From assembly GCF_004010195.1 (NCBI RefSeq), contig NC_057719.1, forward strand, positions 5,799,319 through 5,819,318: a DNA stretch of 20,000 bases. Direction: 5' to 3'. This DNA is from Chiloscyllium plagiosum (Eukaryota). The notes under the pieces are model-generated. The model did not search any database, was not told the origin of the DNA, and saw nothing but the letters and a program-made list of their open reading frames with translations. The translations under genes and the position numbers were made by a program. Positions 1,161-19,362 of the stretch are shown here, one piece after another (positions within the stretch are counted from its first letter, which is position 1; each line of letters starts with the position of its first letter).

Positions 1161-1492
1161 CTATATGACTGATGAATCGAAGGATGGTATACCCATAATT
1201 CACCAAACATCCAACATTACAGCTGTTTCCATTCCCAAACTTTGGCAACAGATGTTAGCTTCAAACCATCACACTGCATTGAAAACTCAAGACAATTAAT
1301 TATTCTGTGTCTACAGTATTTCATGTCACACTCAAGGTTGAAAAAGATATTCATGTTCAAACAGTGCAAAATAAAATTCAAATATAACTACTTTGTATCT
1401 TTTGAAATTCACAGACCTGCAAAATAAGTTAGTGCATTGAACACTTAAATTCCATTTTCTTCAGTAATAGAATTGACTTATCAGGATGTGAG

Positions 1493-1990
1493 GAGAACGT
1501 GAGGACTGCAGATGCTGGGGATCAGAGTTGAAAAGTATGACACTGGAAAAGCACAGCAGGTCAGGCAGCATCCAAGGAACAGGAGAGTCAGCATCATGAT
1601 TCTTGGTGAAGGACTAATGCTCAGTGGTTAGCACTGCTGCCTCGCAGCACCAGGGATCCGCGTTTGATTCCAGCCTCGGGTGACTGTTTATGTGGAGTTT
1701 GCACACTCTCCCCGTGTCTGCGTGGGTTCTCTCTGGTGCTCCAGTTTCGTTCCATAGTCTGGAGATGTGCAGGTTAGGTGAATTGGCTATGCTAAATTTC
1801 CCCTAGTATTCAGGGATGTGTAGCTTAGGTGCATTAGTCAGGGGTAAATGTAGAGTAATAGGTAGAATTGGTCTGGATGTGTACTAGTTGGAGGGTTGAT
1901 GTGGGCTTGTTGGGCCAAATGGACTGTTTCCACACTAGAGATTCTGTGAATCCTTGGCTGCTGCCTGACCTGTTGCGCTTTTCTAGCCCA
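1493..1990 (+). mobile_element. Non-autonomous palindromic Penelope-derived element, interrupted by an HE1 SINE
   Basis: 36-bp inverted arms 1543-1578 and 1951-1986 (4 mismatches). The right arm matches the Penelope 3' end near 13647-13682. Decayed HHR 5' half TCTTGGTGAAGGACTAATGC at 1601-1620. Confidence 0.75.
1621..1950 (+). mobile_element. HE1-type SINE, older diverged subfamily, slightly 5' truncated
   Basis: TCAGTGGTTAGCACTGCTGCCTC head, GTGGAGTTTGCAC...CCCCGTGTCTGCGTGGGTT core and GGGCCAAATGGACTGTTTCCACACT 3' end; tail differs from the 51-362 copy. Confidence 0.9.
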
Positions 1991-8669: not shown

Positions 8670-8743
8670 CTATAGGAATGATACAACACAGAAGGGGGCC
8701 ATTCTGGTCACCTTGTTTATGCTGACTCACAGACACCCAGGCG
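8670..8743 (-). mobile_element. Old CR1 3' terminus; probably continues at 10004-10110 beyond the inserted CR1
   Basis: ATAGGAATGATACAACACAGAAGGGGGCCATTCTGGTC has the CR1 3'-end pattern; 10043-10075 (TTCTCCATCCCTGGCAACATCTCTGAACACTCT) resembles 15397-15440. Confidence 0.5.
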
Positions 8744-10003
8744 CACTTTTTAAGAAAGGTGGGCGAGAGAAAGCAGGAAATTATAGTTAGTCTGACCTCA
8801 GTGGTGGGAAAGATGCTGGAGTCTATTATAAAGGACGAAATTACTGCACATCTGGATAGTAGTAACAGGATAGGACAGAGTCAGCATGGATTTATGAAGG
8901 GGAAATCATGCTTGACTAATCTTTTTGAATTTTTTGAGGATGTAACAATGAAGTTGGACGAGGGAAATCCAGTAGAGGTAGTGTACCTGGACTTTCAGAA
9001 AGCTTTTGAAAAAGTCCCACACAGGAGGTTAGTGAGTAAAATTAGGGCGCATGGTATTGGGGGCAAAGTACTAGATTGGATTGAAAATTGGTTGGCTAAT
9101 AGGAAACAAAGGGTAGTGATAAACGGCTCCATTTCAGAATGGCAGACAGTGACCGGTGGGGTACCGCAGGGATCCGTGCTGGGACCACAGCTATTTACAA
9201 TATATTGTAATGATATAGAAGATGGTATCAGCAATAACATTAGCAAATTTGCTGATGACACAAAGCTGGGTGGCAGGGTGAAATGTGAGGAGGATGTTAG
9301 GAGATTACAGGGTGACCTAGACAGGTTAGGTGAGTGGGCAGATGCATGGCAAATGCAGTTTAANNNNNNNNNNNNNNNNNNNNNNNNNNNNNNNNNNNNN
9401 NNNNNNNNNNNNNNNNNNNNNNNNNNNNNNNNNNNNNNNNNNNNNNNNNNNNNNNNNNNNNNNNNNNNNNNNNNNNNNNNNNNNNNNNNNNNNNNNNNNN
9501 NNNNNNNNNNNNNNNNNNNNNNNNNNNNNNNNNNNNNNNNNNNNNNNNNNNNNNNNNNNNNNNNNNNNNNNNNNNNNNNNNNNNNNNNNNNNNNNNNNNN
9601 NNNNNNNNNNNNNNNNNNNNNNNNNNNNNNNNNNNNNNNNNNNNNNNNNNNNNNNNNNNNNNNNNNNNNNNNNNNNNNNNNNNNNNNNNNNNNNNNNNNN
9701 NNNNNNNNNNNNNNNNNNNNNNNNNNNNNNNNNNNNNNNNNNNNNNNNNNNNNNNNNNNNNNNNNNNNNNNNNNNNNNNNNNNNNNNNNNNNNNNNNNNN
9801 NNNNNNNNNNNNNNNNNNNNNNNNNNTCTCTGGATTCATTTAAGGAAGGATTGGATAGAGCTCTCAAAGATAGTGGAATCAAGAGTTATGGAGATAAGGC
9901 AGGAACAGGATACTGATTAGGAATGATCAGCCGTTATTATATTGAATGGCGGTGCAGGCTCGAAGGCCTGAATAGCCTACTCCTGCACCTATTGTCTATT
10001 GTC
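8744..10003 (+). mobile_element. CR1 LINE, 5'-truncated, young; reverse-transcriptase domain (spans 463-N gap)
   Basis: SLTSVVGKMLESII, QHGFMKGKSCLTNL, VYLDFQKAFEKVPH, GVPQGSVLGP and KFADDTK motifs; ORF2 stop at 9914-9916; (CTATTGT)n tail. A small deletion near 8786 shifts the frame in NYRPVS. Confidence 0.95.
9364..9826. other. Assembly gap (463 N)
   Basis: Run of N inside the CR1 copy. Confidence 1.
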
Positions 10004-10527: not shown

Positions 10528-10975
10528 AGTCCTTACCTGGTCTGACCTACCTGTAACTCCAGACCCACAGCAATGTGGTTGACTCTTAACTGGCCTCTAG
10601 GTGGCACAGTGGTTAGCACTGCTGCCTCGCAGCGCCAGAGATCCGGGTTCAATTCCCGCCTCAGGCGACTGACTGTGTGGAGTTTGCACGTTCTCCCCGT
10701 GTCTGCGTGGGTTTCCTCCGGGTGCTCCGGTTTCCTCCCACAGTCCAAAGATGTGCAGGTCAGGTGAATTGGCCATGCTAAATTGCCCGTAGTGTTGGGT
10801 AAGGGGTAAATGTAGGGGTATGGGTGGGTTACGCTTCGGCGGGTCGGTGTGGACTTGTTGGGCCGAAGGGCCTGTTTCCACACTGTAAAGTAATCTAATC
10901 TAATCTAATCTAGGCAATTAAGGATGGGCAATGAATACCGACCTAGCCAGAAATGGCCTTATCCCGTAAATGAAG
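10528..10975 (+). mobile_element. 3' half of the non-HE1 SINE family, split by an HE1 insertion
   Basis: GTCCTTACCTGGTCTG...AACTGGCCTCTAG, then HE1, then GCAATTAAGGATGGGCAATGAATACC...; the left part matches the reverse complement of 5645-5710. Confidence 0.75.
10601..10911 (+). mobile_element. HE1-type SINE, young subfamily
   Basis: Near-identical to the reverse complement of 51-362, lacking about 10 5' bases; (TAATC)n tail; TSD TCTAGG at 10596-10601 and 10909-10914. Confidence 0.93.
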
Positions 10976-13389: not shown

Positions 13390-13696
13390 TCTGGGACTCT
13401 GGGACACCCGGACCAACCAACCCAACCACCCTGTGGCTCAACACTTCAACTCCCCCTCTCACTCCACCAAGGATATGCAGGTCATTGGACTCCTCCATCG
13501 CCAGACCACAACAACACGACGGTTGGAATTGCATTTCCGACACCCCTCCCCCAAGTCCCTCCTCCCTACCTTTTATCTTAGCCTGCTGGACAAACGTTCC
13601 TCATTCCTGAAGAAGGGCTTATGCCCGAAACGTCGATTCTCCTGTTCCCTGGATGCTGCCTGACCTGCTGCGCTTTTCCAGCAACACATTTTCAGC
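13390..13696 (+). mobile_element. Penelope-like element fragment (GIY-YIG C-terminal part fused to the 3' terminal region)
   Basis: WDTRTNQPNHPVAQHFNSPSHSTKDMQVIGLLHRQTTTTRRLE matches the C-terminal half of Penelope GIY-YIG endonucleases. Flanked by TCTACTCAGTCC 13378-13389 and TCTACTAAGTCC 13697-13708. Confidence 0.85.
13603..13638 (+). ncRNA. Minimal type I hammerhead ribozyme motif, intact core
   Basis: ATTC-CTGAAGA(13607-13613)-A-GGGC-TTAT-GCCC-GAAA(13627-13630)-CGTC-GATT; perfect 4-bp stem II, palindromic ACGT stem III, predicted cut after C13634. Confidence 0.75.
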
Positions 13697-16617
13697 TCTA
13701 CTAAGTCCAGGCCATTCAGTATTCTGTATGTTTCAATTCGATCCCCGCTTGTCTTTCTAAACTCCATTGAGTACAATTCCAGAGTCCTGAAACGTTCCTC
13801 ATATGTTAAGCTTTTAATTCCTTAGACCATTCTTATGAATATCCTATGAACACGCTCCAGTACATCCTTCTTGAGATATGGGGCCCAAACCTGTGCACAA
13901 TACTCCAAATGTGGTCTGGCCAGAACCTTCTAGAGCCTCAGAAATACATCCCTGCTTTTATATTCAAATCATCTTAAAATAAATGCCAACATTGCATTTG
14001 TCTTCCTAACTACTGACTCCCCTGCATGTTTACCTTTAGATAGTCCTTGACTAGAATTCCCAAGTCTCTCTGCAATTCAGTCTTCTGAATTTTCTCCCCA
14101 TTTAGAAAATCGTCCATGTCTCTCTTCGTCCTACCAAAGTGCATGATTTCACAATTTCCCAAGTTGTATTCCATCTGCCGCTTGTTTGCCCAGTCTCCTA
14201 ATCCTTCTGCAGCCTCCCTGTCTCCTCAGTGTTACCTGTCCCTCTACCTATCTTTGTATCATCTGCAAACTTAGCCAGAATGCCCTCCATTCCTTCATCC
14301 AAATAATTAATGTATAAATGAAAACTTGTGGGCCCAGCACTGAGCCTTGCAGAACACCATTTGTCACTGGCTGCCATCCCAAGAAGGACCCTTTTATCCA
14401 GACTTCGTTTTCTGCAAGACAAGCTTCTATCCATGCTAGCACTTGCCTCTGACACCATGAACCCTTATTTTATTTAGTAGCCTCTTGTGCGGAACTTTGT
14501 CAAAAATATTCTTGAAGTCCAGTATCCATTGGCTCTCCTTGGTCTCGAACCTGCTCGTTACTTCCTCAAAGAATTCTAGCAGATTTGTCAGTCATGACCT
14601 TCCCTTGATGAAACCATGCTGATTTTGCCTTATTTCACCATTCACTTCCAAATATTCAGAAATCGAATCGTTCACAATGGATTCCAGTATCTTTCCCACG
14701 ACCGAGGTTCGGCTAATCAGTCTGTAATTTTCCATCTTATGCCTCACTTCTTTTTTAAACAGGGTGTCATGTTAGCGATTTTCCAGTCCGCTGGGACCCT
14801 CCCTGATTCTAGTGATTCCTGAAAGATCATCACCAACACCTCCACTATCTCTTCAGCTATCTTCCTTAGAACTCTGGGGTGTAGTCCATCTAGTCCAGGT
14901 GATTTATCCACCTTCAGGCCATTCAATTTTTCTAGCATCTTCTCCTTGGTAATACAAAGAACAAAGAAAATTTACAGCCCAGGAACAGGCCCTTCTGCCC
15001 TCCAAGCCTGAGCCGATCCAAATGTACTGTCTAAACCTGTCGGTCAATTCCTAAGCATCTGTATCCCTCTGCTCCCCACCTACTCATGCATCTATCCAGA
15101 CGCATCTGAATTGAATCTACCATGCCTGCCTCTACCATCTCTGCAACGCGTTCCAAACGCCCACCACCGTCTGTGTGAAGTACTTGCCGCGTGTATCCCC
15201 CTTAAACTTTCCACCTCTCACCTTGAAAGCATGACCTCTCGTTATTGAATCCTTCACCCTGGGAAAAAGCTTGTCTCTACCCACCCTGTCTATACCCTTT
15301 ATGATTTTGTAAGCCTCAATCAGGTGCCCCCTCAATCTCCTTTTTTCTAGTGAAAATAAACCTAAACCTACTCAACCTCTCTTCATAGCTAGCACCTTCC
15401 ATACCAGGCAACATCCTCATAAACCTTCTCTGCGCTCTCTCCAAAGTGTCCACATCCTTTTGGTAATGTGGCGCCCAGAACTGTACACAGTATTCTAAAT
15501 GCGGCCAAACCAAAGTCTTGTACAATTTTAACATGACCTGCCAGCTCTTACACTCAATACCCCATTCAATGAAGGCAAGCATACTATATGCCTACTTGAC
15601 CACTCTATCCACCTGTGCAGCAACCTTCAGGGTACAATGGACCTGCACTTCCAAATCTCTCTGCCCATCAACTTTCCCAAGTCTCTTCCATTCATTGTGT
15701 AATTCGATCTAGAATTAGACTTGCTGAAATGCATCACCTCACATTTATCTGGATTGAAAGCCATCGGCCACTTTTCTGCCCAACTCTCCAGTCTATCTAT
15801 ATCCTCCTGTATTCTCTGACAGTCCCTTATGCTTTCTGCTACTCACCAATCTTTATGTCATCTGCAAACTTGCTGATCATACCAACAGTGCCCTCTTCCA
15901 GATCATTTATGTATATTAAAAACAACCGTGGCCCCACCACTTATCCCTGTGGAACACCACTGGTCACCTTTCATCATTTTGAGAAACTCCCTTCAACTAC
16001 TACTCTCTGTCTCCTGTTGCTCAACCAGTTCTTTATCCACCGAGCTAGAACACCCTGCACACCATGTGACTTCACTTTCTCTATTAGTCTACAATGGGGA
16101 ACCTTATCAAACGCCTTACTACAGTCCATGTATATGACATCAACAGCCCTTCCTTCATCTAACAACTCAAAGAAGTCTATTAAGTTGGTAAGGCCTGATT
16201 TCCCCTGTACAAAGCCATGTTGCCCATCACTGATAAACTCATTCTTTTCCAAATATAAATAGATCCTATCTCTCAGTACCCTCTCCAGCAACTTCCCCAC
16301 CACCGACGTCAGGCTCACTGGTCTGTATTTACCCGGAATATCCCTACTACCCTTCTTGTACAGGGGGACAACATGGGCAACCTTCCAGTCCTCCGGCACC
16401 TCACCTGTATTTAAGGATGCCACAAAGATATCTGTCAGGGTCCCAGATATTTCATCTCTCACCTCCCTTAGCAACCTGGGATAGATCCCAACCAGTCCTG
16501 GGGATTTGTCCACCTTAATAACCTCTAGCATACCCAACACATCTTCCCGACTTATGTCAATGTGATCCAGACTAATCGAATGTCTATCTCTAATCTCAAG
16601 ATTCATCATGTTCCTCT

Positions 16618-16632
16618 NNNNNNNNNNNNNNN
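16618..16632. other. Assembly gap (15 N, true size larger)
   Basis: The 3' two-thirds of the adjacent HE1 and part of the CR1 ORF2 are missing across it. Confidence 0.95.
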
Positions 16633-16733
16633 ACGTGCAAACTCCACACAGTCAGTCGCCTGAGGCGGGAATTGAACCCGGGTCTCAGGCGCTGTGAGGC
16701 AGCAGTGCTAACCACTGTGCCACCGTGCCGCCC
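16633..16733 (-). mobile_element. HE1-type SINE 5' part (remainder in the gap)
   Basis: Matches 262-362 with a single visible substitution. Confidence 0.92.
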
Positions 16734-18829
16734 GTTTCCTTAATTCTACTTGCTAAAGCTATTTCATGACCCCTTTTAGCCCGCTTGATTGCTTGTTTAA
16801 GACTTGTTCTACTCTTCCGATATTCCTCCAGGGCCCGTTCTGTTCTTAGCTTATGTTCACTTCCTTATGTTCACTTCCCTTTTCCTCTTGGCTAGTTGTA
16901 CAATTTCTCCTGTCATCCATGGTTCATGTATCTTACCCTTCCTATCCTTTGCCTTCAACGTGACATGCCTATCCTGCACTACCACTAACCTATCTTTGAA
17001 AGCCTCCCACATCCCAAATGTGGACTTCCCCTCAAATAGCTGTGTCCAATCCACATTTCCCAACTCCTGCATAATTTTGATATAATTGGCTTTGGCTCAT
17101 TTTAGTACTCTTCCCTTAGGATCACTCTCTTCTTTATCTACAAGTATTCTAAAACATACAGAATTGTGGTCACTGTTCCCAAAGAAACCCCCCACCGCAA
17201 CTTCTATCACCTGTCCTGCCTCGTTCCCCAGTATCAGGTCCAATATGGCCCCTTCCCTCGTCGGACTATTGACTTACTGCTCTAGAAGAATGGCCACCAT
17301 ATTCAGCTCTACCTTCCAACTTTCTTTAATTTTTGGGAAATTACTCCTGTCATCCACTGTGAGGACTGATGCGAAGTAATTATTCAGTTCCTCAATCATT
17401 TCCTTGTTCCCCAGTGTCTATTTCTCCAGTGTCATTTTCCAGCAGCCCGATGTCCACTTTTGCCTCTGTTTTGCCATTTATATATGTGAAGAAACTCTTG
17501 CAGTCTTCCTTTATATAACTGGCTAGCTTACCCTCATATTTAATCTTCTGCCTTTTTTTTGTGGCCCTCTATTGGTCTTTGTAAGCTTCCCAGTCCTCTA
17601 GTTTATCACCCTTCGCTACTTCGCATGCTTTCTCTTTTACTTTTATGCTGTCCCAGACTTCCCTAGTCAGCCACGGTTGTCTTATTCTCCCTGCATCATG
17701 TTTCTTTTTCCTCAAGATGAATCTTTGCTGTGTCTCCTGAATTACTCCCAGAAACCCTTGTCTTTTCTGTAAGGCTCCTCTCCCAGTCAATTCTATCCAG
17801 CTCCTCCCTCATACCTCAATAGTTGCCTTTGTTCAGCTATAATACTATTACCTTTGATTTTATCTTCTCCCTCTCAAATTGCAGAGTAAATTCAATCGTA
17901 TTATGATCACTGCCTCCTAAGGGTTCCTACACCTTAAGCTCCCTTACCAAGTCTGTCTCATTACACAGCACTAAATCCATATTGCTTGGTCCCTAATGGG
18001 CTCCAACACAAGCTGTTCCAAAAAGCCATCTCGCAGGGCTTCCACAAATTCCTTTTCTTGCAATCCACTACCAACCTGATTTTCCCAGTCCACCTGCATA
18101 TTGAAGTCCCCCATGATCATTAGGTTCATGACTAGGAATTAAATTCTGCACCTTACACAAAGATAGGAATCATGATAATTGACATAAAGAAGTAGGGTGC
18201 TAGCTAATGGGAAGGTGCAAAGATTGTCAAAACAGATGATAAGAACTACAAAAGAGAGTCTAAAGAGAAATATGCCAATATTCACTCATTTAACTGGTAA
18301 AGTGGTATTTGCTGTGTGCAGGGTTAGTTGGATTTTTTTCGTAAAATTACTTATCTGAGGTTAATGTGATCAGAGCTTGGAGTTATCAAAGCACTTTTGT
18401 TGATTTTATGCATTGACGTGGAGCAGGGGAGATTAAATTCAGAACCAACTAGCAATTTATTTGATAGTATAACAGTGATCATCATGTTGAGAATAGGGGC
18501 AGATCTTGCAGTCAAACACCATTTAGTTTTCATTGCTTCTTGAGCAGAATGATATAAAAATAAAATAATTTATGGTCAAAGTTGGGATGATATAATGCTC
18601 AAGGGCCTATGCAAACTCTTAGTTATTACACTAAGAGCATGCTATTTGTAACACCAAAGGGACTCACCTAAGTTTTGCAAATTGAACTGGTTGACTTTTG
18701 TCCTTCCTCTTGACAGTACATGAAAGCCAAATGGACTTGTAAAGTGGAATCGTTTGGTCAGCTGAATTAATTCCATAGCATTAATATGGTGCTCAAATTA
18801 TATAGCTTCCAAGTTATCTTAGGTAGTAG

Positions 18830-19026
18830 CGAGTTTTGAGAAGATTTGTAGTTCAGGTTGAGGTTCTGGATGTAGGTTTGCTCGCTGAGCTGGAAGGTTC
18901 GTTTCCAGATGTTTTGTCACCATACTAGGTAACATCTTCATGTTACCTGCCAGGAGATGTTACCTGGTTGGGTGACGAAACATCTGGAAAATAATCTTTC
19001 AGCTCAGCGAGCAAACCTACATCCAG
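18830..19026. mobile_element. Fold-back Penelope-derived mini-element with two inverted HHR relics
   Basis: 72-bp inverted arms 18866-18937 and 18955-19026 (8 mismatches); direct repeat TATCTTAGGTAGTAG at 18815-18829 and 19027-19041; (C)AGGAGA-T-GTTACC-N6-GGTGAC-GAAA-CATC on + and its counterpart on -. Confidence 0.8.
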
Positions 19027-19263
19027 TATCTTAGGTAGTAGTTAGGATGCTGCAATCCACCCAGATTTATTTTGTCAACTCAAGTGTTGTAATCCTGCAC
19101 TTTTCCCCCTTACCTGCTACTGTCAGATTCAAATTTTCATGTTTTGAAGTGTAACTACTTATCGTACTGTTGTGTTAACTAGAGGCTGCAATGTATACTA
19201 GTTACAGAATGTATTGCAGCAACTTACCAATGTTTTCTTGGCAGCCCCTGTCAAACACAGCCT

Positions 19264-19362
19264 CTCCTGATGAAGGGCTCCTTCCGAAATTTCGATTTTC
19301 CTGCCTCTCGAATGCTGCCTGACCTGCTGTGCATTTCCTGCATCACTCTAATCTTGACTCTC
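19264..19362 (+). mobile_element. Penelope-derived terminal fragment starting at an HHR motif
   Basis: CTGATGA(19267-19273)-A-GGG-CTCCT-TCC-GAAA(19286-19289)-TTTC followed by ATGCTGCCTGACCTGCTGTG, as in 13653-13671. Confidence 0.72.

Follow-up and report, generated by a model that had tools for sequence, protein, structure and literature searches.

The fold-back at positions 18815-19041 of the analysed stretch of Chiloscyllium plagiosum DNA (the window, 20,000 nucleotides) is very probably one old insertion, dead on arrival, of an endonuclease-bearing Penelope-like retroelement (PLE) with a high copy number. It consists of two head-to-head arms, one of which has a tail; its family has two termini, the junctions of the family vary from locus to locus, and the insertion is present in two species. 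The head-to-head arms, the one-sided tail and the family termini support what a preliminary description of this DNA had kept as its fallback, namely, an extreme inverted Penelope truncation. The pattern is already in print, and the locus simply adds another dead copy to those with this layout.

Structure and family of the insertion

Direct comparison bears out the two inverted arms of 72 bp each (the left one paired over 18866-18937), which differ at eight sites (arm positions 12, 15, 16, 23, 37, 38, 41 and 45), the 17-nt spacer (18938-18954) that holds a third TGTTACCT at 18941, and the identical 15-bp flanks. The spacer bases 18938-18940 are family sequence, and the foreign filler is therefore confined to the remaining positions (Table 1). 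The hairpin fold has an energy of -137.9 kcal/mol (z -18.7), a value matched by 0 of 200 shuffles in a shuffle test. The inverted-repeat termini are not symmetric: the left end runs 36-39 bp past the inverted match (18827/30-18865), as an unpaired extension for which the right arm has no partner and which the preliminary description had passed over, and this asymmetry of the ends rules out a DNA-transposon MITE. The mismatches had been said to cluster in loop II and one short patch; such clustering is present to a modest degree (adjacent pairs, P 0.17; span, P 0.014), but mismatch 18915/18977, a case of CpG decay, lies outside both.

Table 1. Features of the fold-back, in window coordinates
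Feature	Position	Strand	Basis or remark
Left copy of the putative target-site duplication	18815..18829 (or 18815-18826, 12 bp, should the final 3 bp belong to the element)	+	exact repeat; commonest family end 18827
PLE "tail", left end only, 36-39 bp, 72% A+C on the sense strand	18827..18865	-	unpaired; family end clusters at 18827 and 18863-18867
Left arm: pseudo-LTR 3' end, 5'-truncated within the hammerhead core (begins at U4)	18866..18940	-	near the family majority sequence
Left minimal-hammerhead relic (putative)	18908..18940	-	sequence inspection; stem II folds
36 open codons; ATG where stem II begins, frame open as far as the tail end	18828..18935	-	putative start of the parent element's ORF
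Junction filler	18941..18954	+	matches to the right-arm start
Right arm: inverted tail-less pseudo-LTR 3' end, with about 7 of the 8 arm differences	18955..19026	+	end mirrors 18866, within the second family end cluster
Right copy of the putative target-site duplication	19027..19041 (19027-19038 if 12 bp)	+	exact repeat; junction in organisms A and B

The 15-bp repeat is the sole direct repeat of at least 8 bp between the two flanks, with a chance of about 2e-6 for 50 x 50 placements. Because the commonest end of the family is 18827, the duplication is more likely to comprise 12 bp plus 3 bp of microhomology, with an element of 200 bp. Hence, of the earlier proposal of a 197-bp unit with 3 flanking base pairs that could belong to the element, the assignment of these 3 bp is the more likely part, whereas the length of 197 bp is less likely than 200 bp; the reading of 15 bp and 197 bp is possible, and family ends at 18830-18831 occur too. 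Four of the 24 listed sequencing runs were placed on 18450-19250 at 85% likeness, specifically, two DNA runs of organism A, one of organism B and one RNA run of A. Both insertion junctions are present in organism B, the flanks of which differ at 22 of 653 sites (3.4%); thus, the insertion predates the split between A and B. An empty target site was not seen among the 15 listed of 42 joints, and organisms A and B both carry the insertion.

In one run, 19,349 records fall on the element, with a summed depth of up to 657,000 as compared to 3.8 in the flank; summed depth is not copy number, yet it points to some 10^4-10^5 copies of the family. Loose ends of the family, among the ends listed for the three DNA runs, accumulate at 18827 (516, 237 and 609 records) and in a second cluster at 18863-18867 (133-341, 54-138 and 166-381 records), and in all three runs both clusters sit on mixed AT-rich flanks (agreement 0.36-0.38). 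The family therewith has two termini, 36-40 nt apart; the left end of the insertion is that of the 18827 cluster and the right end mirrors 18866. On the other side, family sequence runs on beyond 18940 in 262, 196, 274 and 84 records. Since 70% of the placed records are less than 95% alike to the element and 21% less than 90%, the 11% difference between the arms lies within the range of the family.

Two further features of the family depth deserve mention. The base at 18905, just 3' of the cut site in stem I, occurs in two forms at a ratio of about 70:30 in each of the three DNA runs, and a change compensating it would be expected upstream of the core, outside this copy. Variants at 18923 and 18930 that make up about 0.5% of the family depth in DNA account for 38% and 25%, respectively, of the one-strand RNA reads, which suggests that many of the transcribed family copies come from one rare subfamily or from a small number of loci.

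With the orientation given by the hammerhead and the ATG, an inverted 5'-truncated copy adjoins head to head, and the one-sided tail of 36-39 bp fits both the 30-40 bp tail of PLE insertions and the two family termini. The PLE identity is drawn from this architecture because no RT or GIY-YIG ORF is tied to the family. The cut site lies 28 nt from the ATG, and the two ends lie 69-73 and 109 nt from it. When compared with longer proteins, the frame of 36-40 residues yielded one match, a host gene model that opens with a family copy, and no RT; among representative proteins there were two matches. The real hits of both comparisons were two other stub-like copies with no RT. A gene model of Hemiscyllium ocellatum opens with the 36 residues of the family at 83% identity, which therefore places the family in carpet sharks. 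In this model, an RP9 isoform (XP_060705803.1, or P0003), residues 1-36 correspond to the family end and stop at the tail end; its annotated first coding exon is a family copy that is either exonised or a gene-model artefact. Residues 1-40 of P0003 had no match among proteins of 364-2000 residues, nor at near length, and no Pfam family was matched for P0001, P0004 and P0005. P0004, one of the two matches among the representative proteins, was rejected, being a low-complexity repeat protein without a passing stretch. Exact motif scans gave 0 matches in viral contigs, metagenome contigs and prokaryote genomes, collections that are not expected to hold the host.

Hammerhead relics, junction and neighbouring elements

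A hammerhead-like motif had been reported in each arm. On motif inspection, both arms indeed appear to carry a relic of the type I minimal hammerhead of the pseudo-LTR (pLTR), and the left one retains an intact stem II of 6 bp, including one G-U pair, which folds as a stem. However, both cores are broken, and the 8 Rfam matches at E up to 5 include no hammerhead and none at gathering score; the microRNA matches among them reflect the long hairpin only. In the core numbering that we assume for both relics, the left one has lost C3 and the 5' strand of stem I, and its G12, which is kept in 50-59% of the family depth, has become A by CpG decay; the right-arm core is down to A7-G8-A9, the three bases with which the first core box ends. 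As family records past 18940 supply C3 and the stem I strand, the copy was cut inside the hammerhead core. Single changes of C3 or G8 are reported to abolish cleavage in the anole hammerhead motif (PMC11167929), and neither hammerhead here should be able to cleave now; in the fold, the arm duplex pairs over both motifs.

The junction filler is made up of a 9-nt direct copy of the right-arm start, which matches the right arm at 9 of 9 positions and the left arm at 8 of 9, followed by a 5-nt inverted copy from the same place (5 of 5 matches to the right arm); alternatively, its last 4 nt may be a mutated right-arm start. The 15 listed of 42 joints in the family comprise 8 of the opposite-strand type, 3 jumps from the left to the right arm, 3 of the tandem type and 1 of the deletion type. 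All of these are at different positions, with one contig per run (one joint in two) and a depth near that of the flank; hence, fold-backs are common in the family but their junctions are individual. In 6 of the 8 listed opposite-strand joints, one side is at 18936-18941, as here, joints further upstream being not callable. Fillers of 1-26 nt join the left to the right arm in 10 of the 12 cases listed, and one of them, like the filler here, repeats a piece of the arm.

The origin of this layout can be envisaged as follows. The endonuclease of the element would have nicked both target strands 12-15 nt apart, and each nicked strand would have primed copying from one of two internal start sites; alternatively, the second arm could have been copied from the first by fold-back. 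Both copies would have stopped inside the hammerhead core, the two ends would have been joined with templated filler, and the arms would then have diverged by mutation. That the hammerheads point in opposite directions would follow simply from the presence of one in each pseudo-LTR. In LINE-1 twin priming, both nicked strands also serve as primers and a head-to-head junction is formed within one duplication; there, the two parts derive from different stretches of a single RNA, whereas here both arms copy the same stretch. There may also be a likeness to repair-type templated insertions.

Several other elements are seen in the window. A second hammerhead-bearing family is represented by a stub at 2815-2960 with a similar head-to-head layout: its 11-bp duplication (2815-2825 and 2950-2960) contains 1 mismatch, and a 36-nt antisense end piece (2826-2862) is followed by a sense arm that starts just before the hammerhead core. 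Four more stubs of this second family are located at 1492-1589 (- strand), 1930-1992, 13604-13700 and 19265-19346, of which those at 13608 and 19268 keep a hammerhead-like core and stem II; a search for duplications around these four gave nothing better than 8 bp with 1 mismatch. Inverted SINE-like copies (134-353 and 10600-10819; 61-141 and 10818-10898) are 95-97% identical and 10 kb apart; incomplete copies also occur at 1619-1810 and 16633-16736. Long stop-free frames of up to 396 codons occupy both strands of 8726-9913, which, together with related pieces at 14246-14827 and 15600-16651, look by eye like LINE fragments.

Origin of the two arms and alternative histories

That the hairpin of 197-200 bp is an independently amplified non-autonomous unit, akin to a MITE or a fold-back SINE and moved in trans by a PLE enzyme, seems improbable. 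Clean ends, an exact duplication and the presence of both PLE termini would suit such a unit, and the junction might be common to up to a few percent of the family copies: the spacer is spanned by none of the listed records, and at 18969 the depth of the right arm amounts to 1.7-4.2% of the mirrored total, or about 1,200 single-copy equivalents in one run, which is a weak bound on junction sharing. However, the joints listed for other loci all differ and have near single-copy depth, the longest family pieces listed all stop at 18935-18940 with none crossing the filler, copies with the right-arm patch make up at most 0.2-0.6% of the family depth, and no second copy of the hairpin was found within the 20,000-nt window. 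The unequal divergence of the arms would be accounted for if the hairpin had arisen from two independent insertions, or if two copies had later recombined or undergone an inversion, and the family is dense enough for nesting; yet one duplication surrounds the whole unit and none surrounds either arm alone, both arms end within 15 nt of the same point, and such joints are common in the family, so that a history of this kind is more improbable still. We give hardly any credence to the notion, which extends the earlier suggestion of a mobilised hairpin RNA with ribozymes on both polarities, that the unit is the relic of a hairpin or circular RNA replicon of the retrozyme or viroid type. Formally, there is one sense hammerhead relic per strand, and the RNA would be highly self-paired, but neither core is intact, the duplex buries both motifs, and the junctions at other loci differ. 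Since there is a single motif per strand and it lies in mid-unit, no unit-length RNA could be cut out, as opposed to the same-strand tandem repeats of animal retrozymes. In the one RNA run, a poly(A) library of which about 2% was read and which is blind to small and circular RNA, the flanks are without depth, 4 of 408 reads are at least 99% alike, and there is no pile-up among the ends listed.

Within the history of a single PLE insertion, the question arises whether the arms were already different when they were inserted, as had been argued from the identity of the flanks. The argument fails: at a divergence of 8 in 72, identity of 15 bases has a P of 0.17 and identity of 12 bases a P of 0.24 (Fisher, 0.34-0.59), and, the flanks having diverged by 3.4%, the time since the A/B split should by itself have produced about 2.4 of the 8 differences. 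The claim itself retains support from the lopsidedness of the differences and from the filler. In about 7 of the 8 differences it is the right arm that departs from the family majority, and in 1, at a CpG, the left (1:7, binomial P 0.07; Fisher P 0.006-0.11 by counting rule, reaching 0.11 when adjacent changes are counted as single events); thus, equal decay from one template explains the arms poorly. The right-arm G at 18966 is carried by both filler pieces, the direct and the inverted one, and would be as old as the insertion if the filler was made at that time; slippage at the tip of the hairpin could also have produced the filler at a later time. The family letter at 18966, 18970 and 18999 is deduced from rows absent among those listed, with the P0003 peptide as an aid in the loop. 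A group of 28 low-agreement records has G at the site equivalent to 18966 and is elsewhere unlike the right arm.

Accordingly, it is possible, albeit doubtful, that the two arms were copied from two RNA molecules or from two differing pseudo-LTRs of one tandem transcript. The concentration of departures on the right arm and the G in both filler pieces speak for such an origin, and the anole enzyme, for which a dimer model is given, is reported to extend both strands (PMC11167929). Against it stand the P of up to 0.11, the potential slippage origin of the filler, the three deduced family letters and the composition of the family: no sizeable subfamily shares the letters of the right arm, which reach at most 0.2-0.6% of the family depth at 18991, 18992 and 18995 and at most 1.7-4.2% at 18969, contrary to the proposal of two subfamilies, and both arms have the majority letter at five polymorphic sites and a common minority letter of 27-30% (18905/18987). 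A second major subfamily as the source of the right arm was rejected on the rarity of the right-arm letters and the polymorphic sites common to both arms. An origin from two templates would be a variant of the best explanation, the single PLE insertion, and compatible with it; some of the differences would then, rather tentatively, date from the insertion. A dimeric Penelope enzyme could conceivably have primed one strand at the tail start site and the other at the tail-less site, on RNAs from different source copies, with templated filler joining the products, although we regard this as unlikely.

Comparison with known systems

According to the accessible text of PMC8557442, PLE insertions have an adjoining inverted 5'-truncated copy and a tail of 30-40 bp at one end, and that of PMC3846280 describes rotifer PLE copies with inverted pLTRs, a 31-bp tail, duplications of 8-10 bp and palindromes at the junctions. 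The present insertion resembles these complex insertions, as far as they are characterized there, in its head-to-head ends, one-sided tail, short duplication and small junction palindrome (PMC3846280, PMC8557442). It differs in that the ORF body and the direct pLTR are gone, in the length of its duplication (12-15 bp as compared to 8-10 bp in the rotifer PLEs; PMC3846280) and, relative to the insertions in print, in its filler, which is a direct plus an inverted copy of the arm.

For PAc, the Poseidon element of Anolis carolinensis, PMC11167929 gives the following outline: the RT has two internal start sites, and the stretch between them corresponds to the tail; cutting and extension affect both target strands; the ORF begins at stem II, with the cut site 26 nt downstream; and priming takes place 111-118 nt into the ORF. 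Similarly, the ATG here is at the start of stem II, the cut site would be at 28 nt (26 nt in PAc), and the outer end is 109 nt from the ATG, as compared to the PAc start region of 111-118. Like PAc Poseidon as described there, the family has two ends a tail apart, an A+C-rich tail and AT-rich flanks; unlike in PAc, the tail alone folds into no stem-loop and no ATT motif is evident at the target. The likeness to PAc is drawn from geometry and description.

Pairs of minimal hammerheads on opposite strands, 100-700 bp apart, are reported for metazoan PLEs in PMC4209133. The relics share with these the long stem II, the single base between A9 and G10.1, the G10.1-C11.1 pair, the minimal stem III (CG in 37-42% of the family depth) and the arrangement in opposite-strand pairs, but both motifs are truncated and mutated here, and their cores are about 15 nt apart. 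Retrozymes, in turn, consist of units repeated in tandem on the same strand, with complete motifs, and give rise to circular monomers, as stated in PMC7229834 and bioRxiv 10.64898/2026.07.22.740005. The present unit is short, non-coding, PLE-related and associated with a type I hammerhead, as the non-LTR retrozymes of PMC7229834 are; unlike them, it is an inverted pair in which each strand has a single, broken motif, and it contains no tandem units. In the literature covered, which did not extend to subscription papers and repeat databases, there was no description of the shark family and no test of one template versus two.

The way in which PLEs build inverted ends together with a one-sided tail is described as undefined in the accessible text of PMC8557442. 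The locus is a data point on this mechanism, with both start sites apparently used in one event and the filler templated from one arm. The lopsided divergence of the arms is of a kind that a genome-wide count could use to test one template versus two, and, should the two-template origin be true, a comparison of arm with arm in young insertions of this genome could settle how Penelope inverted structures are formed.
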